From NCBI GenBank assembly GCA_965204735.1, contig OZ242008.1, positions 4,076,499-4,140,498 on the forward strand: 64,000 nucleotides of DNA. The letters run 5' to 3'. Below, piece by piece: positions 6,279-32,215 of the stretch. A program made the position numbers and the translations under genes. Below the pieces are notes generated by a model that saw only the letters and a list, made by a program, of their open reading frames with translations, did not search any database and was not told where the DNA came from. The stretch is from Longimicrobiales bacterium (GTDB lineage Bacteria > Gemmatimonadota > Gemmatimonadetes > Longimicrobiales > Gaopeijiaceae). Every line of letters begins with the position of its first letter. Within the stretch, counting starts at the first letter, position 1.

Positions 6279-8330
6279 ATGTCCCTTCTGAACACACTCG
6301 CCGCGATGTCGGCCAAGGAACGACAGCCTGTCGAAACCCTCAATGAGAACCAGCGGAAGGCCGTATCGTGGAACGATGGTCCGCTTCTGGTGCTGGCAGG
6401 GCCGGGCTCCGGCAAGACGCGAGTGCTGACCTGTCGTGTTGCCCGAATACTCGAGGACGATGACGAGTCGTCCGTGCTTGCGCTGACCTTTACAAACAAA
6501 GCCGCGGCGGAAATGCGGAACCGGGTCGAACGGCTTCTCGGTCAGCAGGCAAGTCGTGCTCGTCTGTGCACCTTCCATTCGTTCGCCGCCGACATCCTTC
6601 GCCAGCATGGCAGCCACCTAGGGCTGCGCCCCGACTTCAGCCTGCTCGTTCAGGACGAGGACCGCATAGCCATCCTTGAAGACGTGGCGGCTGACTTGTC
6701 CGGCAACGGCGACCACTTGCCATCGGATCGACGGAACCTCCTCCGTTTCGTCGACCGCCTGTTCGCCGAATCCTACGACGGCGGAGAAATGGCGGCCTCG
6801 CTAGTCCGTTCCCCAACATGGGCGCCCCCACTGTATCGGGGCTACCGCCAAGCTCTCGTTTCCGAAAACCGCCTCGACTTCGGCAGCTTGTTGCACTTTG
6901 CCTGTCGCCTATTGAGGGAGAAGCCGGGGGTTGCCCGCTTGGTGCGGTTGGGCTGGACCCACGTATGCGTCGACGAATTTCAGGACACCAACAAGGCACA
7001 GTACGACCTTCTTCGGTTGATTGCGCCCCGTAAGATGCACAATCTGTTCGTGGTTGCAGACGACGATCAGGTCATCTACCAGTGGAACGGCGCAAGTCCC
7101 GAACGACTCGCACATTTGCGGCGCGACTACAGCATGCGTGTCGTTCAGCTCCCGGAGTGCTATCGCTGTCCGCCATCCATCGTCGCAGTCGCCAACCGCC
7201 TAATCGCCTACAACGTCGAAAGGATGTCGAGCAAGCTGTCCCTGACGGCTTCGGCCAGCATGGAGGACCGCTGCGATGGTGGCATCCGATGTGGGGCGTT
7301 CGAATCACCGGAAGCAGAGGCGGCATTCATTCCAAGAGACATCCGAAGCAGAGGGCTCGCCGCCGCCGAATGTGTCGTGTTGGGGCGTTCTGTAAAGTTG
7401 CTGTCGGACGTCGTCGTTGGTTTGACCAACGAAAGAACCGAAGCCGTCCTGATGCGGCGAAAGGACGATTTCGAGTCGCCTGTGATTCGCGTGTTGGTCG
7501 AGGCGTTGCGCTTGACGAATGCCAGACATGACCGCGAAGTACTGCGGAGACTTTGCGTGGCATGGACGGAGCTGTCCGACCGTGCCCTCGAGTCAGACGC
7601 TGTAGCAGCCGCAGCCGCGCTCTCGGGTGGAGATTTCTTGCGCGCATGGGCGGACGCGGCCTCAGCCTCGGCGACCTTATCCGCCCCTTCCATGGCGATG
7701 GTGGCCCGGATTCGCTCGGAGCTTGTGGATGCTCTGGCGTTTCGTGACATTATCGACTGGTTTCTCGACGAAGGTTGGCGAACTTGGAACGGCAGTGACG
7801 GCCGGGGTGACACGATTGATCAGGAGGCCAATGAGGATCGGGGCGTCGCCGACGAAATGGAAGCGTGGAGGGAGTTGCACGAAGACATGATCCAGGAGTA
7901 CGGTGCACGCAAGCTGACTCTGAACGTCTACCTCCAACAGATGGACTTGATGTCCAAGCTGCCCCCTCAGAAACCGGACGCAGTGCGCTGCATGACCGTG
8001 CATGGCTCGAAGGGACTGGAGTTCAAGCATGTCTACCTGATGGGCATGGCGCAGGAAGTGTTTCCGTCGTTTCAGGCGTTGCGCAACGGATCCCAGAGTC
8101 GGGAAGTGGAGGAGGAGCGCCGGAATTGTTTTGTGGCCATCACTCGCACGGAAGAGACGTTGACCCTTACTCGGTCAAGGATGTACTACGGATACCCGAA
8201 GGAACCATCGCAGTTTCTTGAGGAGATGGGAGTACGCGAACTGCCGCTGGCGGATGTTCGCGGGGGTGACCACAGGCGCCGTTGGTCTCACGAACCGCCG
8301 ATTCCGAGCGACCCGTGCGTCCGCCGATGA
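6279..8330 (+). CDS. UvrD/Rep/PcrA-family SF1 DNA helicase
   Basis: Motifs AGPGSGKT, TFTNKAA, TFHSF, VDEFQD, DDDQ, MTVHGSKGLEF, EEERR, VAITR. Confidence 0.92.
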   Translation: MSLLNTLAAMSAKERQPVETLNENQRKAVSWNDGPLLVLAGPGSGKTRVLTCRVARILEDDDESSVLALTFTNKAAAEMRNRVERLLGQQASRARLCTFHSFAADILRQHGSHLGLRPDFSLLVQDEDRIAILEDVAADLSGNGDHLPSDRRNLLRFVDRLFAESYDGGEMAASLVRSPTWAPPLYRGYRQALVSENRLDFGSLLHFACRLLREKPGVARLVRLGWTHVCVDEFQDTNKAQYDLLRLIAPRKMHNLFVVADDDQVIYQWNGASPERLAHLRRDYSMRVVQLPECYRCPPSIVAVANRLIAYNVERMSSKLSLTASASMEDRCDGGIRCGAFESPEAEAAFIPRDIRSRGLAAAECVVLGRSVKLLSDVVVGLTNERTEAVLMRRKDDFESPVIRVLVEALRLTNARHDREVLRRLCVAWTELSDRALESDAVAAAAALSGGDFLRAWADAASASATLSAPSMAMVARIRSELVDALAFRDIIDWFLDEGWRTWNGSDGRGDTIDQEANEDRGVADEMEAWRELHEDMIQEYGARKLTLNVYLQQMDLMSKLPPQKPDAVRCMTVHGSKGLEFKHVYLMGMAQEVFPSFQALRNGSQSREVEEERRNCFVAITRTEETLTLTRSRMYYGYPKEPSQFLEEMGVRELPLADVRGGDHRRRWSHEPPIPSDPCVRR

Positions 8331-17247: not shown

Positions 17248-17420
17248 CTACAGGCGCGCCTTGATCCTCTGCGCCAGTGCATCGAAATCGTCCGGGCATT
17301 TCTGCGGATCACCTGGATGTTTCTCGCAGCTTCTCTGCCCAGGAGCTTGCGCCCGCCCCCTGGGTAGTCGGTCAATGTCGTTCGCGCACCAACGGTACAA
17401 AGTATCTCTCCTTGACGTGG
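17248..17420 (-). pseudogene. Frameshifted C-terminal remnant of a partner gene of the upstream ATPase
   Basis: Three successive frames join as EVHVKERYFVPLVRER / TLTDYPGGGRKLLGREAARNIQVIR / QKCPDDFDALAQRIKARL*. No N-terminal part is present. Confidence 0.45.
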
Positions 17421-18730
17421 ACTTCTGTCCCCGCTTCCCGCTCGCTTGCACCTTCCCCCAAGAAGACTGCGTCTTCCATCCATCCAGAAGCGTGTAGCGT
17501 GCCCAGTCCTTGCGATTCTCGAAGCTCTCTTGCGTTGGAAAGCTCTGCGACTTGACGGATGACTGCATCGCCCGTGTCCGGTCGCCGACACACGACGGCA
17601 GTGTTCTTGAACGTCTGATTGTTGACCATGGCCAGCAACTCCGGCGAGTGCGTCGTGGTCACGACCTGGGATTCACTCTCGGCAGTCCAGGTTTCGATGA
17701 GCTCCAGCAGAAGACGCAAGCGGGACGGGTGAACGCCGTTGTCGATCTCCTCAAAGAAATACAGGTCCGCCTGATCCCTCCCGAACAAGGCGGCCAGGAT
17801 GGCCAGAAAGCGCAACATCCCGTCTGACGCGGAGTAGGCAGAGATGTGTCGGCCGCTTCGCTCCGTTATGCGCAACTGCACCTTGCCGCTCACGGGGTCC
17901 CTCGGGAACTCGAAGTCAGCCACGTCCATCGGCGTCAATTCTCTGCTCCAGTCGACCAATGCGCCTCGGCGATCGGAGTCGTCGCAGATATCCTTCAGCA
18001 CAGTCGGCAAGTTGTCGCCCCGGTCTCCGAGCGTCGTCTGTCCAGGCAAGGATGGTATGCGCATACGAGTCGGCGACGGGTCGAGGAAGCGCATGCTGGC
18101 GAACGAGTCGGCGACCACTTGCGCTTGTGTCTTGTGCAAGCGCAATGCCTTCTTGTGTTCGTGCATCTGCGTCAAGGCCGGTTGATCCGGCCTGGCTTCG
18201 ATTCGATGCCCATATTTCCTCTGCTTCGCAGTCTTTGCCATGCGCAACAGCAAGTGCATCTCGTCGTCTTGCTTCCGTACCGGGTCGGGAGGGGGCGGAT
18301 GACTGTTGTAGACGAAACGCTTCCTGTGCTGGAGAGATTCCTCTGTGACGCGAAACGACCCGGAAGCCTCTTTGCTGCGTATCTTGTACGTGACCTTGCT
18401 CTGCGTCGAGTTCGCGATGCCTGTCGGCAACTGCATCTCCACTTCGAGGGCGAATCCGTTCTCTCCGGCCTCTCCGTCTTGTTCGATCCGCACGACCTCG
18501 CCTAGCGCGCCTCGAATCCCGTCCCACTGGACTTCGCCGCCAGGACCGTACTTGCCGCCAAGAATCTCCGCCAGCGTGTAGCCCCGTCCGAGGCCGTGGA
18601 GGAAACGCAGTGCTTCGCGGATGTTGCTCTTTCCGCTGCCGTTGGTGCCGGCGATGACGGTGAACGGACCCATGCGCAGCCGCTCGTCGGCAAAGCTCTT
18701 GAAGTCCAACAGCCTGATGGACGTGATCAT
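17372..18730 (-). CDS. ABC-type (AAA_21-like) ATPase, defence-associated
   Basis: LDFKSF, GTNGSGKSN, signature SASDGMLR, Walker B FFEEIDNGVHP, H-loop TTHSP. Confidence 0.88.
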   Translation of the reverse strand: MITSIRLLDFKSFADERLRMGPFTVIAGTNGSGKSNIREALRFLHGLGRGYTLAEILGGKYGPGGEVQWDGIRGALGEVVRIEQDGEAGENGFALEVEMQLPTGIANSTQSKVTYKIRSKEASGSFRVTEESLQHRKRFVYNSHPPPPDPVRKQDDEMHLLLRMAKTAKQRKYGHRIEARPDQPALTQMHEHKKALRLHKTQAQVVADSFASMRFLDPSPTRMRIPSLPGQTTLGDRGDNLPTVLKDICDDSDRRGALVDWSRELTPMDVADFEFPRDPVSGKVQLRITERSGRHISAYSASDGMLRFLAILAALFGRDQADLYFFEEIDNGVHPSRLRLLLELIETWTAESESQVVTTTHSPELLAMVNNQTFKNTAVVCRRPDTGDAVIRQVAELSNARELRESQGLGTLHASGWMEDAVFLGEGASEREAGTEVHVKERYFVPLVRERH

Positions 18731-19105
18731 GGGGGTGCCGTCTCTGTGCCGATGGACGTCACGTGATCACGGGGCATCTGGGTCCGGGGCCGGATGCCGG
18801 GCCAACGTGGCAAACACCCAGCAGGGACCAGGGCTTGGGCGCAGCAAGTCGTCCATCGGGAGCGGTAGTCATGATGCTCAACAGTAATTGAGCAGTTGCG
18901 GGAAGGCCACCGCCAAGGTTGCCGGCGTCTCCGCGATCGGCGGCGTCTCTGCGATCGGCAGGGGGGAACTTCGGTCAGCTGGCACTGCCCAGTCACCCCA
19001 ACCGGGCCAGTTGCAGCCTCGTCCGGGTCGAACCCTGAAGCCCGAATCGACTGTTGTTCTGGCGACTCGAGGAGTGCGGTGTCCAGGCTCTTGACTTGAC
19101 AGGAC

Positions 19106-19136
19106 TTGACATTCTGTCGCTGTCCTGCGATACATT
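19106..19136 (+). promoter_or_regulatory. Putative sigma70 promoter (TTGACA...TACATT) of the four-gene operon
   Basis: Perfect TTGACA at 19106 and TACATT at 19131 (19-nt spacer, suboptimal). Predicted +1 falls near ATG 19143. CTTGAC occurs three times in 19090-19110. Confidence 0.45.
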
Positions 19137-19142
19137 AGTATT

Positions 19143-20505
19143 ATGCTCCTTCCTGCCCCCCCCCCCCCCCCCCCCGAGAATTGAGGGAGGCCGTCTTCCG
19201 GCCATAGGGCGTCCGCCCTCCGGTAGCCAAACGGCTGCCCGCAACGAGGTCGGCGTTCGGGAGATATCCGCTCGCGCCGAGGAGCACGAACACCTTCCCC
19301 ACATCGTCAAGTTCTCCGGGGGACGGTCGTCGGCCGCACTGGCGTTTCTGCTGGCCGAGTCGGGGCTGCTACGGCCCGAGCGGGGCGACGCGATTCTTTT
19401 CGCGAACACGTCAGCGGAGCACCCGGCCACCTACGAGTTCGCCCGGGAGTGCAAGCGCAGCCTCGAGCACGACTTCGGCATCCCGTTCTTCTGGTTCGAG
19501 TTCTGCACGGTGGAGGACGCCTCGCGGGGCGTCTACGTCCGCCGTCCGTCGTACCGACTTGTGCTGCCCGAGCCGGTGGAAGACGATCCCCGTGGCTTCT
19601 GCTCCCGAGGCGAAGTCTTCGAGGAGATGCTTTCCTATCAGGGGATGCTTCCCAACCCTCACAGCCGCTCCTGCACGGCCAAGCTGAAGCTGTATCCGTC
19701 GCACCAGCTTCTGGCCGAATGGCTGGGGGTCACGGACGGCCCCGCCCACGCCGGCCACTGGGGAAGACGTCGCTTCGTCACCCCCGACACGGCCTTGGTC
19801 CAGTACCGTCGGAACCGGGGCGCGGCTTCTGACGACGTGTACCGGGAGCGGGTGCGCTGCATGACGAATCGTCCGCACGCGCGCTCGGCCCAGCGTTGGG
19901 ACGAGTACACGGAAGCGCCGGTGCTGGCGTTCGGGGAGCGCATTCACGCTGCCGACCGTCCCGCGGGCCCCGCCCCAATGTGGGGACCAGCCGCCGCCGG
20001 CCACGTCACGCTGCTGGGCCTTCGCGCCGACGAGCAGAAGCGCATCGACAAGATCGAGTCCCGCTCGGTCTTTGCCGAAGGGGCCAGCACATCCTGCTCC
20101 ATCCACACCCAACCGCCGGGCGAGCATCCGATCTTCCCGCTGGCGGAGTGGGGCATCGACGCCACGGACGTTCGCTGCTTCTGGCTGGGACGCGACTTCG
20201 ACCTCCGCATTCCCGAGCACGCGGGCAACTGCGTCTTCTGCTTCATGAAGGGCACCCGGTCGCTGGCGGCTGCGGCGGCTCGGCCCGACCCCGATCGGGA
20301 GGCCGGTGCGCCGTCCGACATCGCCTGGTGGAGCCGGATGGAGGAGCGCTACCGCAGGCAGGTTGCCGCCCGTGACGGCGACGGCACGTCCAGCTTCGGC
20401 TTCTTCGGCCTGAGCGGCCCCACCTTCGCCGAGATCGCCGCGGGCGCCGCGCCGGACCTGGGCCGGTACGCCGTCGGCGCCCCCGCCTGCGACTGCACCG
20501 ACTAA
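19143..20505 (+). CDS. NinC-like / PAPS-reductase-family PP-loop enzyme (ATG 19143 is out of frame at C20)
   Basis: KFSGGRSS, ANTSAEHPATYEF, CTAKLKLYP, LGLRADE, FDLRIPEHAGNCVFCFMK and CDCTD resemble lambda NinC motifs as recalled (SFSGGRTS, DTGCEHP, IGIRADE, GNCIFC). Confidence 0.82.
19156..19175 (+). repeat. C20 homopolymer in the 5' end of the NinC-like gene
   Basis: 20 consecutive C counted directly. Confidence 0.95.
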
Positions 20506-20525
20506 GAACAAGGACCCGCGCACAC

Positions 20526-22460
20526 GTGAAGACCATGCAAGACGACCTCGTATTCCAGTCCGGCCAGCCCCAAGGATTCTCGACCCTTACCACGACTCAG
20601 TGGGACGGCAAGCCGGAGCCGATCGTCCGCGAACTCCTTCAGAACTGTCTGGACGCCGCCGCAGAGATTGATGTCGAACAGGCGGAGGTGGACTTTGACA
20701 TTCGCCAAGTTCCGCTCGACCAACTCCCGGGGATCGGATCGTACCGCAATCACTTCGAAGAAGCGGTAGCCCAACGCCAGGCGGAGACCCAGGGCAGAGC
20801 CGAGAAGAGGGTCATCGATCGCATCCGGCGGATCCTGGACAAGGAAACCGTCCGCTTACTCGTGTGCCGGGACAACGGCGTGGGACTCGATCGCGACCGG
20901 ATGCGGCGCATCCTGACGCAAGGAAACACCAGCAAAGACGAGGGCGGGGCCGGCGCGTTCGGCATCGGCCACCTGACGGCTTTCGCAGGGTCGGACTTGC
21001 GGTACGTGCTTTATGCTGGCCGATGGGGAGACGACGACGGCGAGTTGCACGAGATCGCAAGTGGTCATGCGATCCTGGCCTCGCGCGCTCTCTGCAACGG
21101 CGAAGGTGGTCTCGGGGGCGACGGCTTCTGGTTGCACGGGGAGGAAGCCACGCTCTTCCATCAGTCCCCCTATCCAGACCGGGCGCCGCCCCTGCTGCAA
21201 GAGGAACTGGGGCGGATGACTGACACGGGCAGCGTCGTGTGCATCACCGGATTCAACAACTTTCGGAGCGAGGCCGATCCGGTGCAAGCGATCGCCCAAG
21301 TCGCGGCCAAGAACTTCCTGGTGGCGATCTGGGAAGGGAAGATGGTCGTGCGCGTGCGCGGCGAGAACGAGGCCGAGACCGTAGTAGTGACGCGCGACAC
21401 GTTGGGAGATATCCTCGAGCAGGAGAAGAGCAAGAAGCGCGGTGCCCAGACGGGCCGCTGGCTCCCGGGCGCCCAGGCCTACCAAGCGTGGCAGACGTTG
21501 AGAGACGGCGTGCCTTTCAAGCTGCGCGACGGCACGCCAGTCCGCATTCGGCTGCCGGAGGCTCGCAAGCGCAGGCCGGAGTCGCGGGCTCAGATCTTTC
21601 GGAACGGCATGTGGATCACAAACAGCGCCGACGCACTGGAGCCCCGACACTTCAGAACCTGCAAACCTTTTGCCGCGGTCGTCATGGTGGCCGACGGCAG
21701 GTTGGCGGAGCTGGTGCGTGATGCCGAAGGCCCGGAGCACCGCCATCTGGAGCGCAGCCGCCTCTCGCGACAAGACAGTCTCGAGCTGCTGGAGCGGCTC
21801 AGGGAGATCGCGGCCGAGCTGCGACAGCAGGCTGGCGAAGAGGAGGTCGACGACGAGTTCACGCCGGAGGGCTTCGTCATGCTTTCGGGTGATGTGGAAC
21901 GGAAGGCGGAGAAGGTGCCCAGCTACCGTCCACGAGAAGGCCCGGGCCAGAACCGTGTCACCGTGTCGAGTCGAAGCAACAAGGAAGAGGACGGAGTGGA
22001 CCGCCGGGAAAAGAGCGGCGAGGAGAAAGGCAGGCGCAGGCAGGGGGCGGCGCCCCGGCAGGGCAGAGCCGTTCCGGGCCGGCTGGCGTACCGAGCGTCG
22101 CGGAACGGGGCAGGAACAGTCGATACCGTCAAGGTCGAGTGGAACCATCAGGGGAGCGCCCTGTCGGTAAAGGACCTGCTGGGCGTCCGCGTCAGGGTGC
22201 CGTCCGGTTCCGACCAGACCTGCGAGCAACCTCTGGGGCCCGAGTGGGTCCCCATTCGCGAGGTTCGCTTCGAGGATGGCACAACCCACCTGCCCAAGGA
22301 CGACAACCCGTTCGAAGTGGCGCTGCCCAACACCGCTCGCAAGTTTGTCGTCTTCCTCGACACGAAAAGGCCGCTTGACGATCCCAACGTCGTTGAGGTG
22401 GACATCGTGCGCCGACGCAGCGACTCGAAGGCACGTTCGGCCGCCTCGTCGGTCGAGTAG
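20526..22460 (+). CDS. Protein with N-terminal GHKL (HATPase) ATPase domain
   Basis: N-box RELLQNCLDA, G1 DNGVGL, TSK, G2 GAFGIG, TG in TGSVVCI. Charged linker and unknown C-terminal domain. Confidence 0.78.
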   Translation: MKTMQDDLVFQSGQPQGFSTLTTTQWDGKPEPIVRELLQNCLDAAAEIDVEQAEVDFDIRQVPLDQLPGIGSYRNHFEEAVAQRQAETQGRAEKRVIDRIRRILDKETVRLLVCRDNGVGLDRDRMRRILTQGNTSKDEGGAGAFGIGHLTAFAGSDLRYVLYAGRWGDDDGELHEIASGHAILASRALCNGEGGLGGDGFWLHGEEATLFHQSPYPDRAPPLLQEELGRMTDTGSVVCITGFNNFRSEADPVQAIAQVAAKNFLVAIWEGKMVVRVRGENEAETVVVTRDTLGDILEQEKSKKRGAQTGRWLPGAQAYQAWQTLRDGVPFKLRDGTPVRIRLPEARKRRPESRAQIFRNGMWITNSADALEPRHFRTCKPFAAVVMVADGRLAELVRDAEGPEHRHLERSRLSRQDSLELLERLREIAAELRQQAGEEEVDDEFTPEGFVMLSGDVERKAEKVPSYRPREGPGQNRVTVSSRSNKEEDGVDRREKSGEEKGRRRQGAAPRQGRAVPGRLAYRASRNGAGTVDTVKVEWNHQGSALSVKDLLGVRVRVPSGSDQTCEQPLGPEWVPIREVRFEDGTTHLPKDDNPFEVALPNTARKFVVFLDTKRPLDDPNVVEVDIVRRRSDSKARSAASSVE

Positions 22461-23302
22461 TGCCCCGCCGCCCCGTGAGCAACGCGACTGCGCACCAGCT
22501 GCCGATCCTCTTGGAAAGCGGGTCCCGGTACGACTGGTCGAGCGCGAGCTACGATCCCGACGTGTCGGTCGGCACCAACCGAGCGACGGTTCAGCACCAA
22601 ATGGACGGGGCACCGGCCTTGCGCAGGCTGATTGAAGACGAAAAGGCGGTTTGGGCCGTTGAATTGCGATGCCCCAAGACCCTCATGGCTCGCGTGGAGA
22701 CATCGTCCGCCGATCGCCAAGTCGTCTCTTGGTCCTCCGAAGAAGTAGACGGCGTGGTTTGGATCGTGCCGGGGCTGATTGCGCTGAACCCCCTCTCGCT
22801 CGACGGATCGGGCCTGACGTCGCTGTGGGCCGATGCGGGCGACCTCCGGGTACCGGCAGGTTGGTGGCTGGCCAAGGGCGATGCGTACCGTTCCAAGACA
22901 CTCACTGAATCTCTGGTCAAGCTTCGTCGCGACAAGGACATGGCCAAGGGCACCATGGAGGTGCGTCCTGACCACAGCGGTGGACGCCTGCGGTTCGCAG
23001 TGCACATGGCGCCGGACGTGTTCGAGAAGGCAAGATCGGACAGGACGTTGCAAGTGGCGGCTCTGGTCGGAGTCTGCGGCTGGTTCCCTCGCGAGTTCGG
23101 CAGGGTCGCAGAGTCGCAGTCCGGTTCCGGCACCAACGATGCACGCGACGACCACCCTGTGGCCCGTGAGCTCAGGGAGCGATTGCGGCGCAAGAACCAA
23201 GACGTGTCGTTGTGGGACGACGACGAGAGCTACGACCCGGCCTTGGTGGCCACCTTACTGGAGCCCTTCGATTTCAAGGAAGAGCATGACGAAGAAGATT
23301 GA
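22460..23302 (+). CDS. Hypothetical protein (gene 3 of operon)
   Basis: 280-aa globular-looking ORF; the start overlaps the gene 2 stop. Confidence 0.75.
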   Translation: MPRRPVSNATAHQLPILLESGSRYDWSSASYDPDVSVGTNRATVQHQMDGAPALRRLIEDEKAVWAVELRCPKTLMARVETSSADRQVVSWSSEEVDGVVWIVPGLIALNPLSLDGSGLTSLWADAGDLRVPAGWWLAKGDAYRSKTLTESLVKLRRDKDMAKGTMEVRPDHSGGRLRFAVHMAPDVFEKARSDRTLQVAALVGVCGWFPREFGRVAESQSGSGTNDARDDHPVARELRERLRRKNQDVSLWDDDESYDPALVATLLEPFDFKEEHDEED

Positions 23303-24155
23303 CCGACTGGTCGACAAGTGCGGCACGGCCTTCAGCAGGTGGCAGAGCCGAATCATCTTCGACCAAAGGAAGCACGGAAAGCCTACCGAAAGTCGCAACC
23401 GCGAGATCGTCGATAAGGTCAGGGACCGGCAAGAGGCACTGGCATCCGAAGTCGGAAACGGGCCTCAGCAGTTGGGTGCCTACCTTCGTCGTGTCTTGAA
23501 GCTGGGTGTGGGCGACGAGATCGACGCACTTCCCTTTCCACGCGATTGCCTTACCCCCAGCGAATTCGTCAAGCCCCCCGTCGAGCTTGAGGAGGAGCTT
23601 GGCAAGTCATGGCAGAAGTTGCCTCCGCGGCTGGCGTCCCGGCCCGTGTTCTGGCTTCTCTGCCATGTCGCGTGGATCGAGCAGGGTCGTTTAGGCGACT
23701 CTGGCCACTTGGTCCGCGCTGCGTTGATGGACGACCCTCGCGCCAGGGACTCGGAAGCGCGAACCCGCAATCTCCTGCGACGGACCGGGGGCATTTTCGT
23801 CCGAGGCAATGTGTCCGTTTTCTCCAACTGTCCGATGGCCCGGGCGTGGTGGCGCTGGTACTTGGCGCGTCAAGTGGCGGAGGTCACGAAAGGCAGGGTC
23901 GGTCGCGCCGACGCTCATGCAACGTTGCACGCGAGCAATGGGGCATGGGAGGAGCTGGCCATGCTCTCGCTCCGGCGGATCACAGTCGTCAATCAACGTC
24001 GGGCACGGGCGGCCGTGGTGAGCCGGCTGCATGCGCTACTAGGCCAGCACGGGAAGCTGAACAAGAACCACGTAAAGGAGGTCGCGGTCGAGTTCGCCCG
24101 TGTTGGGCTGCGCCGCTCCTTTGAGCATACGTCCTGGGATGAACTGATGGGCTAA
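23286..24155 (+). CDS. Hypothetical helical protein (gene 4; possibly distant DUF6339-like)
   Basis: Overlaps gene 3 by 17 nt with an AAGGA RBS. PVFWLLCH and MARAWWR recall the W-rich RLWW motif of DUF6339 (unverified). Confidence 0.7.
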   Translation: MTKKIDRLVDKCGTAFSRWQSRIIFDQRKHGKPTESRNREIVDKVRDRQEALASEVGNGPQQLGAYLRRVLKLGVGDEIDALPFPRDCLTPSEFVKPPVELEEELGKSWQKLPPRLASRPVFWLLCHVAWIEQGRLGDSGHLVRAALMDDPRARDSEARTRNLLRRTGGIFVRGNVSVFSNCPMARAWWRWYLARQVAEVTKGRVGRADAHATLHASNGAWEELAMLSLRRITVVNQRRARAAVVSRLHALLGQHGKLNKNHVKEVAVEFARVGLRRSFEHTSWDELMG

Positions 24156-24268
24156 GCCCTAACGACCGGCGTCCATGGGGCGGTCCGGCGTAACGAGCCG
24201 CACGCCGTGGTGCCAGGCCCGCATTGGTCTGCGGCACGTTGGAGCAGAGCTTCGTATACTGACGGAGT

Positions 24269-25720
24269 TTAGCCCCTCACGGGTTTGACGCCGCCCCGCC
24301 GTCCCAGGCCGTAACCGACTCTGAACACGTCGGGAATGTTGACGCGACCGTCAAGCAATCGCTGAAATATGCTTAACGCCTCCAAATCGTCACGTAGGCC
24401 TTGAGCACCGCGCTCGATCTGACGTGGTGTCGCCTTGACCGCATCCTGTGCCGTGTCGTCGCCCAAACGCGATAGTACGTCTCGCTCCCGCCAGCGCTTC
24501 TCAATCTCCTCGAAAGAACAGGGCACTACCATGCCATCCAAGGTCATCAAGAGGCGGTGCACCCACGGATAGTCCTCCTGGAATTCCTCCACACGAATCC
24601 TGGAAGCCTCCTGAACACCAAGTTTGATGCTGTCAAAATGTAGAGCATAGTCGTGTTCCGGGTGCCTCTCGCGAGTATTGCCGGCTGCGGTCCTTAGGGC
24701 GGCAAGGAACGAACGAGGGCTTACCTTGCCTTCCGCATCTGCCAAGTGATTGGGTATCCACGTGTACGGGAATCCCCGTCGACGGTCTCTGCCCATCCAT
24801 GGTCCCGCGAGCTGATGAAAGATGGTGCGCTGTGTCTGCTCGGCAAAGACAAGCTGCCTTGGCACGGCGAAGACGGTTTGCCCCTGCAGATCCAACGACG
24901 CCCAGTGCTCCTTAGTCAGCAGAGGTCGCATCGCGGACCCGGTGGGACCATTGGCCAGCGAGTGCCAGAGGAGCCCGTACAGTTCGTTGGGCGGCCAGTT
25001 CAATTCCGCACGCGATGACAGTATCTTTGACGCATCTGGGAAGTCGGCGATGCTGGTCTCCTCAACTTGATCCGTCCGCAAGAACGCCTTTACTCTGATT
25101 CGCCTGTACGAACGCATGTCCGACGCAAGCTGCATCAGTCCTCGGATCAACCGGTACATGTCCTGCCAGCTGTCGGCGCATCGATCCAGGGCGTCGAACA
25201 GTATCAACAGGTATGTCCCGCGACTGTCTAGTTCAACGTCTCGTTTGTCCAACATGACGTCAATCTCTTCGGGTTGTCGCTTAACGTACTCGCATCGTTC
25301 CTGCCAGCTACGTGCTCGTCGCAACGGGTCCGATTCTGCGGACAAGTGCCGTGCAAGCACCGTTCGCCAAACAAGTCGCGGAGCGATGTCGGCCGCCAAC
25401 AGGTTCGCCAATACGTCCTTGCTAGGATAATCGTCGGGTGCTGCGCTGACGCCGAATCCCACTGTCACCTCGGTGGCATCAGTTAGGCGCGACTTCTCGC
25501 TCTTTCCCACAAGAAGACGGACACTGCTGTCTTGCAGTGCTTGCCACCAAAACGTCTTGCCCGCGCCCCGCATGCCAACCACAACGGAAACGTCCGGGTC
25601 CATCGCCTTGAGGTGAGACCGAGGCAGGTAGACGTTGGCGACCGGCAAGGTGGTATCGCCATGAGATGTACCCTCTGGAAGGCCGACAAGGGCCTGGCGC
25701 AAAGCCTGGGCTCGGGTCAT
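24269..25720 (-). CDS. P-loop NTPase (STAND-like) of a three-gene module
   Basis: Walker A GMRGAGKT, Walker B LILFDALD, FLRTD, SPRSFL. ATGA-coupled to the upstream gene. Confidence 0.8.
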   Translation of the reverse strand: MTRAQALRQALVGLPEGTSHGDTTLPVANVYLPRSHLKAMDPDVSVVVGMRGAGKTFWWQALQDSSVRLLVGKSEKSRLTDATEVTVGFGVSAAPDDYPSKDVLANLLAADIAPRLVWRTVLARHLSAESDPLRRARSWQERCEYVKRQPEEIDVMLDKRDVELDSRGTYLLILFDALDRCADSWQDMYRLIRGLMQLASDMRSYRRIRVKAFLRTDQVEETSIADFPDASKILSSRAELNWPPNELYGLLWHSLANGPTGSAMRPLLTKEHWASLDLQGQTVFAVPRQLVFAEQTQRTIFHQLAGPWMGRDRRRGFPYTWIPNHLADAEGKVSPRSFLAALRTAAGNTRERHPEHDYALHFDSIKLGVQEASRIRVEEFQEDYPWVHRLLMTLDGMVVPCSFEEIEKRWRERDVLSRLGDDTAQDAVKATPRQIERGAQGLRDDLEALSIFQRLLDGRVNIPDVFRVGYGLGRRGGVKPVRG

Positions 25721-26985
25721 CGGGTCGCCGCCGGACGAAGATAGCTGTCAAACGATCGCAGGAAGGCGGAGTACGCAAGCGTCACGGGGGCAGCGTCGAT
25801 CCTGTGCAGCGAAGAACCGGCGGCCAAGCCTCGATTCCAGTGAATTGCGAGGGGGCTATGAGGGGCAGGAGACTCCCGCAGGTCAAAAGAAAAGGCGTCG
25901 TTAGGAAACGACGGTTCCACCCCGTCGTACAGGTAGTCGCGAAACAAGTGCCAAGAACGCTCAGTAAACCTCGCAAGGTATTGATCTGTGCCGGTCTCTG
26001 GCGTTAGAGCTGACACGATGGACAGTCGGTCTCTCATCTTTTCTGCGAGACGGTGATCGCGCCAATGCGAAAAAACCATCTCGAAGGTGCTCCAAGTGCT
26101 TGCAGAATCGGTGGCGAACAGCATGACATGAGCACCGACGTCGGTGACCGTGGCGGCCGCAAGATCGTGTAGGCCGCTACGGCTCTCGATAACCACGATG
26201 CTTGGTTGCCATGCTTCCTCGAGCGACGTGATCACGCGGTCGAGCCGCTCGGTCCATGGCAACCCCGTGTTGAGATACACTCGGCCGAGCTTTGCCAGGT
26301 ATTCGCCGGGGCGACGTCCGTGGGCGGGCACCACGGCAACCGAGCCTTCAAGGTCTTGGGCCCAGGTCGGCGTTCCCACCATGCGGTCCAAGACATGAGC
26401 GGCCTGGCCAACCAAGTCCTCCACGAACCAGTCTACGATTCCGAACTGGGGATGGGCGCCTTGGTCCAAGACCGTCGAGCCCAAACCCGGCGACTCGACG
26501 TCCGCATCCACGACCAGGACCCGTTCTCCTTGGTGGGCCAAGTGCCAGGCGAGAACCACAGCCGTGGTGCTCCTTCCCACCCCGCCGTTGACCGAGAACA
26601 GCGTGTAGCGGATTCGTCGCGACGCTGGCGCATTGACCGTCTGCCATCCGTTACCAGTGATCATGCGATCAACCCAAAACATGCACCCCGACATCCTCCT
26701 CGCGGAGGAACCAAGCAAGGTGGATGCGGGTGTGTCGAGGATCAGCAAGGAAGCGTCGGGTGGATGACCATGGGCGCCCAGTTCACGACTAAGGCGCGTG
26801 GCCAACTCCGCCAACGCTCCCTGGACCGAGTCGCTGGCCGGTTCGTCAGCGATGATCCGGACCCTGCCATAGAGGTCGCGAACGAGGTAGACGTCGATTC
26901 CCTGAAGTGGAGTCAGGTCCATGGACGCCAGAATCGTTTCGACTCGCTGGTATACGCTGTCGAACCTGATGAAGTCTCCTCTCAT
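25717..26985 (-). CDS. ParA/MinD-like ATPase (KGGVGR-variant family; NGGVGRST here)
   Basis: FSVNGGVGRSTT, VLVVDADVESPGL, ESRSGLHD, plus an N-terminal VRDLYGRVR domain. Confidence 0.82.
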   Translation of the reverse strand: MRGDFIRFDSVYQRVETILASMDLTPLQGIDVYLVRDLYGRVRIIADEPASDSVQGALAELATRLSRELGAHGHPPDASLLILDTPASTLLGSSARRMSGCMFWVDRMITGNGWQTVNAPASRRIRYTLFSVNGGVGRSTTAVVLAWHLAHQGERVLVVDADVESPGLGSTVLDQGAHPQFGIVDWFVEDLVGQAAHVLDRMVGTPTWAQDLEGSVAVVPAHGRRPGEYLAKLGRVYLNTGLPWTERLDRVITSLEEAWQPSIVVIESRSGLHDLAAATVTDVGAHVMLFATDSASTWSTFEMVFSHWRDHRLAEKMRDRLSIVSALTPETGTDQYLARFTERSWHLFRDYLYDGVEPSFPNDAFSFDLRESPAPHSPLAIHWNRGLAAGSSLHRIDAAPVTLAYSAFLRSFDSYLRPAATR

Positions 26986-27425
26986 ACGATGCCGTCCACT
27001 TCCGCGAGGCGCATGATGCGGACGACTTCTCGGGTCGCCTTCTGGTACCGGCTTACCTCCTCTGGGCCGACATGGCCGCGGTTGGCGTAGCGATCATGGT
27101 GCGACCAATCGTGGAACGGATTCCCAGGGGCGAGGCCGTACCTTGCTCCGAACTGGTCGCTGGCAAGGTCCGCAAAGAGTGGCCAGATCGCTTGGATGTG
27201 TTGGCGGTGTTTACGTTCCCGAGGTGTGCCCATGGCATCCAAGGGCATCCACTTGAGCACCTGCATCGCGGCTTTCAGCCCGCACTCCGCGCTGAACCCA
27301 AGGAGATACGCAGCGTTGGCCCACCTGTCGTGGTCGCAGAGAAGGTTGCCGTCTTCCCAATGTCGCTGGTGGGCGTCCACGAAGTCGGCGGGTTGCTCGG
27401 CGCGGTTCGGGTTCGATCTGATCAC
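26982..27425 (-). CDS. HEPN-domain protein
   Basis: DAHQRHWEDG...WANAAYLLGFSAECGLKA...H...WSHHDRY. GTG start with AGGAGG RBS; ATGA coupling downstream. Confidence 0.72.
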   Translation of the reverse strand: MIRSNPNRAEQPADFVDAHQRHWEDGNLLCDHDRWANAAYLLGFSAECGLKAAMQVLKWMPLDAMGTPRERKHRQHIQAIWPLFADLASDQFGARYGLAPGNPFHDWSHHDRYANRGHVGPEEVSRYQKATREVVRIMRLAEVDGIV

Positions 27426-27536
27426 TGCGGCCCTCCTGCATCTGTCTGTCGTCTTTGTCTGTCGTCGCCACATGACCGGGCCCGGTCGCAAGCTGCCACC
27501 GCTCTTCCCGCAACTTCGGCCCGTTCGAGCCCCGAG

Positions 27537-27669: not shown

Positions 27670-28236
27670 TCATTGCGCGTCAAGCTCGGGTATCCAGCGT
27701 TTGTGCACTAGCGTGGTGATTGCGATGCGAATCTGCCGTTCTGTAAACTGGTGCTTGCGTGGACTCCAAGCGTGCGTGCGGCGGAGCGTGTCCACTACCG
27801 ATGTGACACGTTCTCTGTCAACCACCCAGTGCACCGTCGACAACAACTCCAAGCCAAAGGACGATTCGAAACCCTCCACAAGATCGGACACCCGCAAGAA
27901 ACGGGCCTGCGTATCTGGATACTGGCCAAGAAACACACGAGCATCTTCAACCGCACCGGGCACCAAGTCCATTCGCTTGTGCGGGGCATCGCTTCCGTCG
28001 GCATACCCCGACACAAGATGCTCTTCCACAGCGTTAAGGACATGTCGCAAGTTGTCGGCATATGGTCCATAGTGTCCCTTCCTGAATCTCAAGCGCAGTG
28101 GCTCGCCAGCAATTTGCATAAAATACATCAACTTGTGCACCTCCAACAATGTAATATACGGATCCAATAGCGCTTGATTGTAGCGATGCATCAATTGAAC
28201 CAGGACCGCTCTAGATTGGTTGGTTGGCTGGATCAT
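27670..28236 (-). pseudogene. darG: C-terminal domain of DarG-type antitoxin, macrodomain missing
   Basis: ITLLEVHKLMYFMQ...GHYGPYADNLRHVL...VEGFESSFGLELLSTVHWV...WSPRK. No macrodomain and no darT. Confidence 0.7.
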
Positions 28237-28521
28237 GGACCGGTCCTGGTAGGGGGGCGGATGTCCGAAGGAGCGTCCTGAACGATAGCCTCCGTCGTTC
28301 GTCGGTGCAACCGGGCTTGACCGGGCCTCGCGGATATCCTCTTGGGACGGCCACATCTTCCAGGGCTCGTACGATTCGGTGGACATGTTACCGGGCGTTC
28401 CTGGATGTGTGGTCGCTTCGCACACTTCTGGCTCTTGACGAAGCGGTGGCGCGAGCCCCTTGGGCTGCCGTCCGCATGGATCAAGTACGCTGCGTCTTCA
28501 TCCCAAGCCGGAGGAGACGCG

Positions 28522-28676
28522 ATGTTCAGGAGGGGAAGCGAGTGCTGCTGCGACACTATCTCGACCAGGGGTGCCGAAGGCGGAGGTCGCCCGCCGCGTC
28601 GGCGTCAGCCGGAGGACGGTCTACCACTGGATCGAGACAGGCCAGCTCGACCGCGAACTCGACGCCGGGCCCCCCT
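28522..28676 (+). mobile_element. istA: IS21-family transposase N-terminal HTH remnant (frameshifted)
   Basis: GGAGGAG RBS and ATG, then KRVLLRHYLDQG / VPKAEVARRVGVSRRTVYHWIETGQLDRELD in two frames. Confidence 0.7.
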
Positions 28677-28858
28677 GGTGGTCAGGCCTCCGTCTCATCG
28701 CCCCTCGCGGTGTTCGCGCAGGTACTGGAACCGCCCGTCGCCGAGGTCTTCCGCCGGACACCGGGGAACAGCCTCGACACGCTAATCTTCCGTTCTTCTC
28801 TCCTCGACAGCATTATCTTGGGATTGTTCTCCCCAGCAGCGGTGAGACGACAGCCAAA

Positions 28859-30421
28859 ATGGCCAAAACTCCAGCCAACCAATCGCTAGGGCCTTCGGCT
28901 CAAGAATCGGCTGCCGCGACGCCCGTGAAGGCCGCCGCGACGCTGGCCGCGGCGCCCGAGGCGTTCGTGTCCACGACGGCGATCAGCCGCGCCGTCTCGC
29001 GGGCCGTGCGGGGCGGCAAGCTACGGAAGATCGGCTCCCGCCTCTACACCAGCAACTTGGTGGACCCGGCCGAAGTCGTGGTGCGGCGCAACCTCTGGGG
29101 GATCGTCGCGGGATACTTCCCAGGCGCAGTGGTGGCCGACCGCACGGCGTTCGAGATCGGCCCAGCCCCGGACGGCTCCGTCTGCATTGCGGCCGCGCGG
29201 GGGCGCGAGATCGAGCTGCCCGGAGTCGTCCTCCGTCCTCGCCGAGGGGCGGGGCCGGTCGAGCTGGACCAGCCGTTCATGACCGGACTTCACCTGAGCT
29301 CCCGGGCGCGGGCGTTCTTGGAGAACATGCGGCCCAGCCGGGCACGGGGCGGGCGCGTGTCGCGAACCCTGTCCCGGCGCGAGATCGAAGAACGCCTGGA
29401 CGCCGTGACCTCGTTGTCGGGCGAAGCGGCGGTCAATCGGCTGCGCGAACAAGTGCGGATCGTGGCGACGGCACTGGACATGCGCGACGAGGCGGCAGCG
29501 CTGGACGCCTTGATCGGCGCGCTCCTGGGAACCCGGTCAGCCCGGCTGTCCTCCCCCGCGGCCCAGGCACGCGCGAGAGGTCGTCCTTTCGACTCCGGCC
29601 GGGTCGCCCTCTTCGAGACGCTGGATCGCGCGCTCCGCGACTACCCGCCCCGAACTGTTCCCGCCCCGCCCCGCGACACTGCCGGCCGCAAGACTCTGGC
29701 CTTCTTCGAGGCGTACTTCTCGAACTTCATTGAAGGCACCGAGTTCAGCATCGAAGAAGCCGCCGGAATCGTCTTTGACGGCAATGTCCCAGCGGAGCGA
29801 CCGGCGGACGCCCACGACGTGACGGGCACCTGGCGCCTGGTGTCCGACGACGCCGAGATGGCCCGGACCCCGGACAGCTTTCGCGACCTTGAAGCGCTGC
29901 TCCAGTCGCGCCACCGAACGATCATGGGCGGGCGGCCCGACACGCGCCCCGGCGAGTTCAAGTCCGTCTCCAACCGAGCCGGGGCGACGGTGTTCGTGGA
30001 CCCCGCATTGGTGCGCGGCACGCTGGAGCAGGGCTTCGGACATTGGCGGAGTCTCGAGACGCCCTTTCAGCGCGCCGTCTTCGCGATGTTCCTCGTGACC
30101 GAGGTCCACCCCTTCGCGGACGGCAACGGACGAGTGGCCCGCATCATGATGAACACGGAGCTGGTGGCCGGCGGCGAACACCGCATCCTGGTGCCCACGG
30201 TCTTCCGCGCCAACTACGTCGCCGCGCTCCGAGCCCTGTCGCGAACGGGACGCCCTGAGCCGCTGGTCCAAGTGATGGACTACGCCCGCCGATGGACCGC
30301 CCAGGTCCCGTGGCGCTCGCTGGACGAAACGCGCCGCGAACTCGAGCAGTGCCACGCATTCCTGGACGCGGAAGACGCCGAAGCCGAGGGGAAGCGCTTG
30401 AGGATGCCTGCGGCTTCTTGA
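28859..30421 (+). CDS. Fic-domain protein with N-terminal extension
   Basis: Canonical Fic motif HPFADGNGRVAR; FFEAYFSNFIEGT. Confidence 0.92.
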   Translation: MAKTPANQSLGPSAQESAAATPVKAAATLAAAPEAFVSTTAISRAVSRAVRGGKLRKIGSRLYTSNLVDPAEVVVRRNLWGIVAGYFPGAVVADRTAFEIGPAPDGSVCIAAARGREIELPGVVLRPRRGAGPVELDQPFMTGLHLSSRARAFLENMRPSRARGGRVSRTLSRREIEERLDAVTSLSGEAAVNRLREQVRIVATALDMRDEAAALDALIGALLGTRSARLSSPAAQARARGRPFDSGRVALFETLDRALRDYPPRTVPAPPRDTAGRKTLAFFEAYFSNFIEGTEFSIEEAAGIVFDGNVPAERPADAHDVTGTWRLVSDDAEMARTPDSFRDLEALLQSRHRTIMGGRPDTRPGEFKSVSNRAGATVFVDPALVRGTLEQGFGHWRSLETPFQRAVFAMFLVTEVHPFADGNGRVARIMMNTELVAGGEHRILVPTVFRANYVAALRALSRTGRPEPLVQVMDYARRWTAQVPWRSLDETRRELEQCHAFLDAEDAEAEGKRLRMPAAS

Positions 30422-30469: not shown

Positions 30470-32215
30470 CTACCGTGAAGGTACGCCCAGCAACTTGGTG
30501 ATTTCGTCTCTCAGGACATCACGGCGAGTATCGTAAAACAACTTGAAGTCGGTCATCTCCCTGGGTACGTCACCAAGTCTGTGAAGATCGCAGTACGACT
30601 GGCGCTGTTCTTCGCTCATCTCTCCGCCCATCCAGTCCGCCGGCAACTTGGTGCCCTTGGTGACGTTCTCCGTGCCGGGGAGCAACTGAAGATTGGCTAG
30701 CCGATCGCGACAGTCAACGACGTCCTCCCACTCGTCTTCTGGCAGCCCAGCCTTCCGTAACTGGGTCCTGGTGAACCCAGCCTTCGGAAAGACATGGTCG
30801 ATGTGGAAGAAAAAGCTGTCGACGTTGACGAACGGAAAGAGGAGTGAGAGCAGAGCAAACGTCCGGGAGTCGCCGTACTTGATATCCGCCAGGTCCTCGA
30901 TCTCTTCGGGCTCGAAGGCCAAGGATCGACCATGACGAGTCATCTCCCTTCTTATGTCGATCACAGGGAAAGGTCCGCTACTCTCCCTGATGACACTCCG
31001 CAATCCTGTGAGCAGGGTATCCAGACCGCTTCCCCATATTCCCGATTTGAGGATGCTTCGCACCAACCAGCCACGGATTTCGTTTCTATCTTCCGCATAA
31101 TCCCTGCTCGTCAGAAAAGTATCTGTGTGATCCCTCGTATGAATGTAATAGGCTATCGGCAAGACCGCGCTGTCTGCGCGCAGCGTCCGGCTGCTGAACC
31201 CAAAGCTAGCAATCAAGCGAACAGTCCGTACGAGAGAGTCCTTGATGCTCTGCCACGACTTTTCTAGAGTGGTCATGTTCCGATTGTTGAAATTGCCGAC
31301 CTTGAATCTTATGCTCCCAATGTCGCTCATCATTAGACCCGCCTTGAGAACCCAATCCTTTGAGAACGAAAACCGTCCTTGGTGTCGAATGTCTTGTACC
31401 AGACTGCGAATCTCTTTGCGTGCGTCGTGGTCCTTGAATGCCGCTACGGCGACAGAAAGCAAGAGATCAGAGTAAGACAACGGCGTGCCGCCGCTGTTCA
31501 TCCGAATGAAGATCTGGAGCACTTTCTCGAGATCTTGGCTGTCTTCTTCATAGTACGCCACGACTTGGTCCTTATGAGTCACTTGATACAGACGCCACAG
31601 TGCTCCCAGTCCGCCAGTCAGGGCTTTTTGACTTGGGTGCTTGTCCAGCCAGTCCTGCATTTCTACAGGGGAGGTCATGGACAGGATATCCGACACCCTA
31701 AACCAGCACTCGTCGGAATCGGCGTTGTCAAGGTTGCCCTTGGTCAAGAATGCAAAGCGGTATCTCCTGCCTCCCCCGTCTTCGTGGGGCTCCCACAGCA
31801 AGTCCAGGTGGAGATGCCGAATAGGAAAAGCACTGGGATCATTCCAGCGTCGATAGGGCAGCTTCCAAGCCATGCTTCCTCGGAAGCCAATGTTGAGCGC
31901 AGTTAGACGTTGCTGTCCGTCAAGCACTGCCGTGAGTGGTTGTCCCGGCATCGGCTCGTATGATCTGCCGTAGGGCAGCTTGCTTTGGTGATAGTTTAGT
32001 ACGAAGTCGTAGTAGGTGTAATCGCCGCTGTTCTTGGGCTCTACGTTCCAGTACAGGAAGGTCCCGAACGGATAGCCCTGCATCAGGCTGTCGAACAACC
32101 CGCAGATCTGGCGAGGCCGCCACACGAATTCGCGCTGGATTGCGGGCAGAACCAGCCGATTGCTGTGGACCGCATCAAGTGTCTTCTTGATGGTATGGCC
32201 AGTCTGGTACGACAC
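30470..32215 (-). CDS. DUF262 + DUF1524 protein (GmrSD/SspE-like modification-dependent nuclease)
   Basis: LPAIQREFVW, LDGQQRLT, FIRMNSGG; C-terminal HNH-like IDHVFP...NLQLL...EN. Confidence 0.88.
   Translation of the reverse strand: MSYQTGHTIKKTLDAVHSNRLVLPAIQREFVWRPRQICGLFDSLMQGYPFGTFLYWNVEPKNSGDYTYYDFVLNYHQSKLPYGRSYEPMPGQPLTAVLDGQQRLTALNIGFRGSMAWKLPYRRWNDPSAFPIRHLHLDLLWEPHEDGGGRRYRFAFLTKGNLDNADSDECWFRVSDILSMTSPVEMQDWLDKHPSQKALTGGLGALWRLYQVTHKDQVVAYYEEDSQDLEKVLQIFIRMNSGGTPLSYSDLLLSVAVAAFKDHDARKEIRSLVQDIRHQGRFSFSKDWVLKAGLMMSDIGSIRFKVGNFNNRNMTTLEKSWQSIKDSLVRTVRLIASFGFSSRTLRADSAVLPIAYYIHTRDHTDTFLTSRDYAEDRNEIRGWLVRSILKSGIWGSGLDTLLTGLRSVIRESSGPFPVIDIRREMTRHGRSLAFEPEEIEDLADIKYGDSRTFALLSLLFPFVNVDSFFFHIDHVFPKAGFTRTQLRKAGLPEDEWEDVVDCRDRLANLQLLPGTENVTKGTKLPADWMGGEMSEEQRQSYCDLHRLGDVPREMTDFKLFYDTRRDVLRDEITKLLGVPSR

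Follow-up and report, generated by a model that had tools for sequence, protein, structure and literature searches.

A conserved four-gene cassette

We analysed a window of 64,000 nucleotides (nt) from the genome of a Longimicrobiales bacterium (assembly GCA_965204735.1, contig OZ242008.1; genome G000 below), in which a cassette of four genes lies within a defence island. An earlier note on this DNA had proposed that the first gene, encoding a PP-loop enzyme, writes a self mark on DNA, and that the other three, headed by a GHKL ATPase, form an ATP-driven restriction or sensing module. Our analysis partly supported this interpretation. The coordinates confirmed the layout described there, with four genes on the plus strand and junctions that are, in order, a 20-nt gap, a 1-nt overlap and a 17-nt overlap. 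The features of the cassette are as follows.

19143..20505, plus strand: gene 1, NinC/phage-type PAPS-reductase-fold PP-loop enzyme, predicted [4Fe-4S] sulfur-inserting writer
19156..19175, plus strand: tract of 20 C's, 13 nt after the ATG, candidate phase-variation switch
20526..22460, plus strand: gene 2, GHKL ATPase, divergent PDC-M33A with paraMORC2-type ExxxH
22460..23302, plus strand: gene 3, divergent PDC-M33B, predicted partner of gene 4
23286..24155, plus strand: gene 4, all-helical, DUF6339/PDC-M33C-like, candidate DNA-recognition subunit

The four-gene operon is real and conserved. An alignment search with gene 2 of species-representative genomes gave 120 confirmed relatives among 601 pattern matches, and gene presence in the best 80 (the 80 gene-2 loci) was scored with profiles built in this analysis. 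Gene 1 was found in 74 of these loci, gene 3 in 76, gene 4 in 74 and all four in 70, bearing out the conserved association for which the earlier note had proposed a neighbourhood survey; the loci are kin and partly redundant, and such counts do not represent independent trials. The order was 1-2-3-4 in 32 loci, 1-desulfurase-2-3-4 in 28 and 2-3-4-1 in 6, with GmrSD or DndB inserted in 6 further loci. Judged by record titles, the relatives of gene 2 span several phyla, and many carry the names of sponge symbionts. Among 75 metagenome loci found via gene 1, gene 2 was present in 51, most of the misses being short contigs, and in 16/16 of those with both flanks long. The cassette was also found on low-GC contigs (25-35%), and therefore spans more than one host group.

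Comparison with a genome of the same genus showed DNA similarity from 19141 to 24168 with differing flanks, which indicates that the cassette moves as one unit. In all four genes the changes fell mostly at third codon positions, with 23/12/87 differences at the three positions over 407 codons of gene 1. A chance gene neighbourhood was rejected on the basis of this third-position excess and of the confinement of similarity to the cassette.

The PP-loop enzyme and the GHKL trio

The PP-loop of gene 1 reads SGGRSS, and its five Cys residues (RxCT, NCxxC and a C-terminal CDC) are invariant in 64/64 aligned relatives, in agreement with the PP-loop and Cys clusters noted earlier. The NinC-like affinity also held: the top family match was the phage PAPS reductase family phrog_424 (E 1.3e-28), and tblastn gave weak matches to 96 phage records, one of them annotated as 'putative NinC' (E 5e-5). 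In the ESM Atlas, gene 1 matched PAPS-reductase clusters, 55% viral, at 0.95. Relatives numbered 817 of 8000 scored candidates, and only 3 weak ones were found among viral contigs. Gene 1 differs from phage NinC in being longer (>400 residues), chromosomal and bound to an operon. Matches to known sulfur writers were more limited: SspD aligned with E 8.7e-11 over only about 55 N-terminal residues (29-84), BrxP gave E 0.07, and the alignment with DndC brought the PP-loop and RxCT together (hhalign E 0.005, probability only 7%), whereas an NCBIfam scan gave no match to the DndC family TIGR03183. Alignment against sequences of the PDB gave two matches, both judged spurious. Assignment to the sulfate-assimilation enzyme CysH was rejected in view of the defence context and a Pfam PAPS_reduct score below cut-off (E 0.008).

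DndC carries a [4Fe-4S] cluster on three Cys residues and uses a separate Cys pair for sulfur transfer (PMC10853773; this source, like PMC2292703, PMC12914056, PMC12839542 and PMC11437467, is cited for the part of its text that was available). From the motifs we infer that gene 1 may hold a parallel arrangement of three-Cys cluster and Cys pair.

Gene 2 matched PDC-M33A with E 6.9e-32, whereas canonical members score 1e-94 to 1e-137. The complete GHKL boxes reported in the earlier note were invariant or nearly so in 119 aligned proteins, and E36, N40, D116, G120, G143/G146/G148, E401 and H405 were present in 119/119. The ExxxH and GHKL motifs were also found in 11/13 sister and distant proteins. 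A PDB search gave weak matches to Hsp90, MutL and MORC, and a search of viral contigs gave none. ExxxH is the motif given for paraMORC2, a group of GHKL ATPases associated with restriction-modification (R-M) systems (PMC2292703). Gene 2 shares with it the GHKL domain, the conserved ExxxH and the R-M context of its sister clade, Gram-positive hosts included, an assignment by motif and not by comparison with published members.

Gene 3 matched PDC-M33B with E 1.6e-4, and its relatives with 3e-7 to 2.6e-9. Its model (predicted local distance difference test score, pLDDT, 90.6) has an N-terminal Ig/FN3-like beta-sandwich and a helical C-terminal part. Gene 4 itself had no direct match to PDC-M33C, DUF6339 or any other family in library scans. 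One of its relatives matched DUF6339 (E 6.5e-6); weak matches to PDC-M33C were seen in 2/8 relatives (E 1.4e-4) and in 0/7 of another set, while the PDC-M33C models gave no match in G000 and none in control genomes either. The first match in the ESM Atlas was DUF6339 at 0.86, which we take as a lead only, and in 3/4 plasmid records opened, the relative of gene 2 was followed by an unknown gene and then by a gene annotated as DUF6339. The fold search proposed in the earlier note was run for genes 3 and 4 and gave no convincing structural match: the best was Z 7.5 for gene 3 (root-mean-square deviation 3.2, 95 aligned residues; within the range of common arrangements) and Z 5.0 for the all-helical model of gene 4 (pLDDT 96.1). 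Foldseek with both models returned nothing at E 0.001, and we make no claim of a new fold.

The predicted complex of genes 3 and 4 scored 0.89, compared to 0.00 for the best control, on a scale whose mark is reached by 116/157 solved pairs and 2/215 mismatched pairs; the runs shared at least 79% of contacts, with a partner pLDDT of at least 88. The modelling supports binding of gene 3 to gene 4. Several cassettes (L013, L021, L226) are followed by additional copies of gene 4, which suggests that gene 4 is a specificity subunit. An orphan C-terminal half of gene 4 (64% identity) lies elsewhere in G000 beside transposase-like genes (G000:C1:3724471-3724896, minus strand).

Judged by these sequence comparisons, genes 2-4 are a divergent sister of PDC-M33, a candidate system catalogued in PADLOC that has the same order of GHKL ATPase, M33B and DUF6339/M33C. 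In a quick tree of 65 of 97 gene-2 proteins, subject to long branches and composition bias, the gene-1-linked set, with the window cassette, formed one side of a branch (SH-like approximate likelihood-ratio test 99) beside canonical M33A (97). Canonical loci carry a C5 methylase and a type II endonuclease or other R-M genes, unlike the clade of the window, which has a PP-loop enzyme and often a desulfurase. The idea of an uncatalogued system stands for the four-gene combination, of which we found no description, but less so for genes 2-4, distant relatives of PDC-M33A/B/C.

No nuclease domain was detected in genes 2-4 by library scans, with fold searches covering genes 3 and 4, and the label of a restriction module is therefore unsupported. 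It is further disfavoured by the separate type II endonuclease of canonical PDC-M33 loci, and by the separate GmrSD or PbeA that loci of the sulfur type often carry.

Exchange with DNA methylases and the predicted sulfur mark

The earlier note had predicted that gene 1 would be swapped for a DNA methyltransferase in some loci, and this is what we found. We searched for PDC-M33A in 301 genomes of the phylum of G000 (18 with a match) and in 400 genomes of a gammaproteobacterial class (16 with a match); the resulting 34 loci cover 35/42 matches, the other 7 being gene-1-type loci already in our set. A C5 cytosine methylase was present in 11/16 loci without gene 1 and in 0/18 loci with it, and was found in none of the 80 gene-2 loci. 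In three canonical loci the methylase comes directly after M33C, with a type II endonuclease next in two. Trios with neither partner also occur (5/16, as well as L038, L040 and L050). The partner of the trio is interchangeable, being either the PP-loop enzyme or a C5 methylase. On two low-GC contigs (L182:5858-8287 and L175:587-2404) a single frame encodes a C5 methylase joined to a gene 1 homolog, genes 2-4 being absent from the contig DNA examined, and these fusions tie the gene 1 family to DNA. The homolog in L182 is complete, and follows ParB-like and topoisomerase genes in an apparent integrative element (by eye).

G000 itself carries a second, distant GHKL trio (G000:C1 about 90300-95300; L132:5282-10310, minus strand; PDC-M33A E 4.5e-10, PDC-M33C E 8.6e-5). 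A C5 cytosine methylase comes next to this trio, after its last gene, and the ATPase gene has a run of 18 C's six bases past its ATG. Since this second trio is only distantly related to the trio of the window (gene 2 E 5.5e-6, gene 4 E 0.04, gene 3 E 0.35), we regard it as an analogue of the swap and not as its best proof. A third PDC-M33A-like ATPase (G000:C1:3071381-3071974, L211; E 2.8e-16) has neither gene 1 nor a methylase nearby.

PP-loop enzymes have many substrates (PMC11437467), and gene 1 could act on tRNA, on a nucleotide or on one of the trio's proteins, with the desulfurase only assembling its iron-sulfur (Fe-S) cluster. The mutual exclusion with DNA methylases, the fusion to one of them and the Dnd-island neighbours described below make such a role highly improbable.

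A class V aminotransferase (desulfurase) was found in 35/80 gene-2 loci, directly between genes 1 and 2 in 30, which would fit the sulfur-type mark suggested in the earlier note. The one cassette desulfurase scanned scored equally as DndA (3e-135) and SspA (9e-135). The window cassette lacks this gene, and G000 has an IscS/NifS-like gene at G000:C1:2433551 (E 4e-73); a further desulfurase-like match was found elsewhere in 4/4 genomes checked, and a housekeeping desulfurase is accepted for both Dnd and Ssp (PMC12914056). Other neighbours in the 80 gene-2 loci were GmrSD (18), PbeA (11), TIGR04096-type proteins (10), DndB/DGQHR (5) and PbeC (4). TIGR04096 denotes a 'phosphorothioation-associated putative methyltransferase', and the one protein scanned scored above its cut-off. 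PbeA or TIGR04096 lies next to the cassette in 15 of the genomes searched for DndC, and 11 of these had no DndC above cut-off (genome completeness not given). In 10/80 loci, including L041, L052, L053, L070, L073 and L081, a protein of about 650 residues that contains a sigma-70 region 4 domain is encoded downstream of gene 4, separating the cassette from PbeA.

Taken together, we consider the cassette to be a previously undescribed self-marking system of the phosphorothioate type under phase variation, with a probability of about 60%. Gene 1 would hold a [4Fe-4S] cluster on the three Cys residues of RxCT and NCxxC, and its PP-loop would adenylate a phosphate of the DNA backbone; sulfur, relayed via the cluster or the C-terminal CDC pair, would then replace the adenylate. 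The sulfur could come from the cassette desulfurase or, in the window, from the housekeeping IscS/NifS-like enzyme. Genes 2-4 would form an ATP-driven clamp and targeting complex that plays the part of DndDE or SspBC and has gene 4 as its likely specificity subunit, and restriction, where present, would be left to separate proteins that read the mark (GmrSD, PbeA). Slippage in the C tract would turn the writer on in part of the population.

Several observations weigh against this assignment. Functionally uncharacterised phage PAPS-reductase proteins are more similar to gene 1 than DndC, SspD or BrxP are. The cassette desulfurase passes no NCBIfam cut-off, that of DndA included, is missing from the window's branch of the gene-2 tree (15 rows), and might only build the Fe-S cluster. 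A true DndC passed the cut-off in 14 of 50 cassette genomes searched, G000 (98% complete) giving no match. Pbe/CxC modules occur without Dnd genes and with methylases (PMC10853773), making a Pbe neighbour weak evidence. Finally, the NTPase of Dnd, Ssp and BREX type 4 is of the P-loop type (PMC12914056), and in the literature searched we found no precedent for a GHKL ATPase in that role.

PP-loop Fe-S enzymes of the TtcA/TtuA type thiolate bases of tRNA, and gene 1 could similarly write a sulfur- or adenylate-derived mark on a DNA base, for example thiocytosine, with the trio targeting or proofreading it, a part that it would also play for C5 methylases. Gene 1 does lie outside the DndC family, takes the place of a cytosine base modifier and has a homolog fused to one. 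We nevertheless find a base mark doubtful, since the neighbours are those of backbone-sulfur islands and the DndC, SspD and BrxP systems are described as making phosphorothioate (PMC12914056).

A different division of labour, compatible with either chemistry, would make the trio a restriction or abortive complex and gene 1 the source of a self mark or antitoxin-like modification. The prediction for PDC-M33 was that of a defence candidate made up of its three genes on their own (PADLOC; 10.1101/2024.01.29.577857), many loci, that of the window included, have no adjacent nuclease, and the trios without either partner could be read in the same way. The lack of a nuclease domain in genes 2-4 and of a nuclease fold in genes 3 and 4 speaks against this arrangement, as do the tracts in gene 1 and the desulfurase described below, which would leave self DNA open to attack if the trio restricted unmarked DNA, barring a polar effect of the frameshift; we regard it as decidedly unlikely.

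Compared with known systems, two traits of phosphorothioation were found, namely a PAPS-reductase-fold PP-loop enzyme with cluster Cys residues, and a desulfurase in the genome or in related clusters. SspABCD-SspE and BREX type 4 (BrxP/BrxC) share with the cassette the PAPS-reductase-fold writer, an optional desulfurase, an ATPase and a GmrSD/DUF262-type neighbour, but the ATPase of the cassette is of the GHKL and not the P-loop AAA+ type, and gene 1 matches SspD only over the N-terminal motif. Searches for SspB/DUF4007 gave 0/5 genomes, with no match in control genomes either, and the SspC and BrxC models had no match among the four genes, BrxC and PglZ not being searched genome-wide. DndABCDE with PbeABCD shares the DndA-like desulfurase, the three-Cys cluster motif and Cys pair, and the DndB, PbeA, PbeC and TIGR04096 neighbours of cassette relatives; it differs in that gene 1 is not a member of the DndC family and the trio stands in place of DndDE. 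A DndD search gave no match in G000 and sub-cut-off matches in 3 of the other 4 genomes, and in library scans of genes 3 and 4 the DndE model had no match, the genome not being searched for DndE. In TdpABC a single PP-loop enzyme is said to suffice for phosphorothioation via an adenylated intermediate (cited in PMC12914056), and it serves as a model for the chemistry of gene 1, likened by description and not by comparison with a TdpC sequence. As far as sequence allows, the cassette thus resembles Dnd, Ssp and BREX type 4 but departs from them in writer family or in ATPase.

No description of the cassette was found in the literature, the search leaving aside preprint supplements (possible contexts of PDC-M33) and subscription papers, the Tdp paper included. 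The main text of Payne et al. 2024 (10.1101/2024.01.29.577857) does not mention M33, its supplements lying outside the search, and no literature was found that names PDC-M33 or DUF6339. In the available text, the terms PAPS, PP-loop and phosphorothioate do not occur in Iyer et al. 2008 (PMC2292703), and PMC10853773 and PMC12839542 lack the words GHKL and MORC; the word PAPS is absent from the Tiamat and paraMORC preprints. What the analysis of the window contributes is the apparent phase-variable control, the counted mutual exclusion with methylases, the fusion of a methylase to a gene 1 homolog and the link to paraMORC2.

If gene 1 writes sulfur on DNA, the cassette would represent a further class beside Dnd, Ssp, BREX type 4 and Tdp, and the first such class found with a GHKL ATPase; searches that start from DndC or SspD and require a P-loop NTPase (PMC12914056) would have missed it. 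The cassette offers a direct test of the role of the phage NinC/PAPS-reductase family, and also of the PDC-M33/paraMORC trio, because the same trio pairs with a methyl or a putative sulfur writer. A bolder proposal, which we rate as rather unlikely, is that the NinC/phage-type PAPS reductases make up a separate family of DNA sulfur writers. In the cassette, this family would be paired with a GHKL (paraMORC-type) targeting complex and would write a thiolated base, a kind of mark new to DNA, instead of a phosphorothioate, with on/off switching at the level of the population. Were this the case, phage genes annotated 'cysH/PAPS reductase', lambda ninC included, would be DNA-modifying counter-defence genes.

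The C tract and the surroundings of the cassette

In the assembly of G000, gene 1 is out of frame from its own ATG: reading from 19143 meets a stop after 13 codons, whereas the frame of the gene body is open from 19054 to 20505. Tracts of C17 and C19 occur at the same site in G002 and G003, and a shorter allele was also found. The proteins P0002 and P0003 start in frame at the matching Met without a long tract, and together with the start of similarity at 19141 this indicates that ATG 19143 is probably the true start. Long homopolymer runs are error-prone in long-read assemblies, and the exact tract lengths are uncertain. Among contigs from four sequencing runs one spanned the region, 9 nt shorter net, and the tract was skipped as a repeat.

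Tracts were enriched in the cassette, with 24 in 456 kb of cassette compared to 12 in 837 kb of flank in the 80 gene-2 loci (p 1.2e-4, kin not being independent). In other lineages they lie at eight or more cassette sites. Gene 1 carries them at both ends and in its middle, the desulfurase at its 5' end and middle, and gene 2 at its 5' end and at two internal positions; a further site is the junction of genes 3 and 4. Most of the tracts fall in gene 1 or the desulfurase. This diversity of sites points to repeated independent gain, which suggests either a cost of the mark or its variation as a means of evading adapted phages. Of the 20 tracts that could be classified by eye (4/24 were unclear), 17 were out of frame, which is not significant against an expectation of two thirds (p 0.06). 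Just upstream of the cassette of G003 (L017:5809-6434) are three copies of a unit of about 305 nt, each ending in a run of 16-18 G.

The C and G runs of G000 comprise 15 of length 8, 1 of 9 and 2 of 10, followed by 27 of 12-36. An independent-base expectation fits badly (17 runs of at least 12 expected, 27 seen), and we therefore relied on the observed gap in the distribution. An ATG lies within 30 nt upstream of 12/27 long runs, compared to 19% of random positions. Genes with such a tract within or beside them include a type I hsdR (C36), a DrmMI-like methylase that is split at its C18 run, a type IIG R-M gene and several surface proteins, with fn3, Calx-beta and unknown large proteins also among the genes affected. 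The pattern points to a contingency-locus system in an uncultured lineage, and the cassette appears from its sequence to be under phase variation, with the C tract as the candidate switch.

The tract might instead be no on/off switch at all, gene 1 being expressed from an upstream TTG (19106), through fixed slippage or a +1 frameshift, or its frame being broken by an error in consensus length. The four close alleles G000, G002, G003 and P0001 share one frame offset, which keeps fixed slippage or another start in play, and the body frame is open upstream in both G000 and G003. Yet G002 lacks an upstream start in this frame, the matching Met serves as the in-frame start of P0002 and P0003, L019 has the other offset, L021 is in frame, and tracts also break genes internally at unrelated sites. 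We consider expression without switching unlikely, and favour phase variation through the tract.

A possible promoter, read by eye, ends 6 nt before the ATG, and gene 1 may therefore be leaderless.

19106..19136, plus strand: possible promoter TTGACA...TACATT with a 19-nt spacer

Similar elements are present in G003 (by eye). A consensus scan upstream of gene 1 that allowed spacers of 16-18 nt found none, and we grade the promoter evidence as weak.

The defence-island setting described in the earlier note was confirmed by PADLOC matches in the flanks, to PDC-M07A-like, PDC-M28ABC, DarG-like, Fic and HEC-05 proteins. The last of these lies 6 kb downstream of the cassette.

30470..32215, minus strand: GmrSD-type protein (HEC-05, E 1.9e-207)

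It is distantly related to the GmrSD proteins located within related cassettes (E 4.2e-25 against a profile of these). A PDC-M07A-like ABC ATPase (17372-18730, minus strand) lies upstream, divergent from the cassette, and a complete PDC-M28ABC candidate defence system (24269-27491, minus strand; E 2e-175, 6e-126 and 1e-38) faces it from downstream. Further on are the C-terminal part of a DarG-like protein (27670-28425, minus strand) and a helix-turn-helix-Fic gene (28460-30421, plus strand), which is also found near the cassette in G002. At greater distance, the window contains a UvrD helicase that scores as GajB (6279-8330, plus strand; E 4.5e-222) and a protein of 1444 residues with sacsin-type GHKL and superfamily 2 helicase parts (55255-59589, minus strand), which matches Tiamat TmtA with E 2.7e-50.

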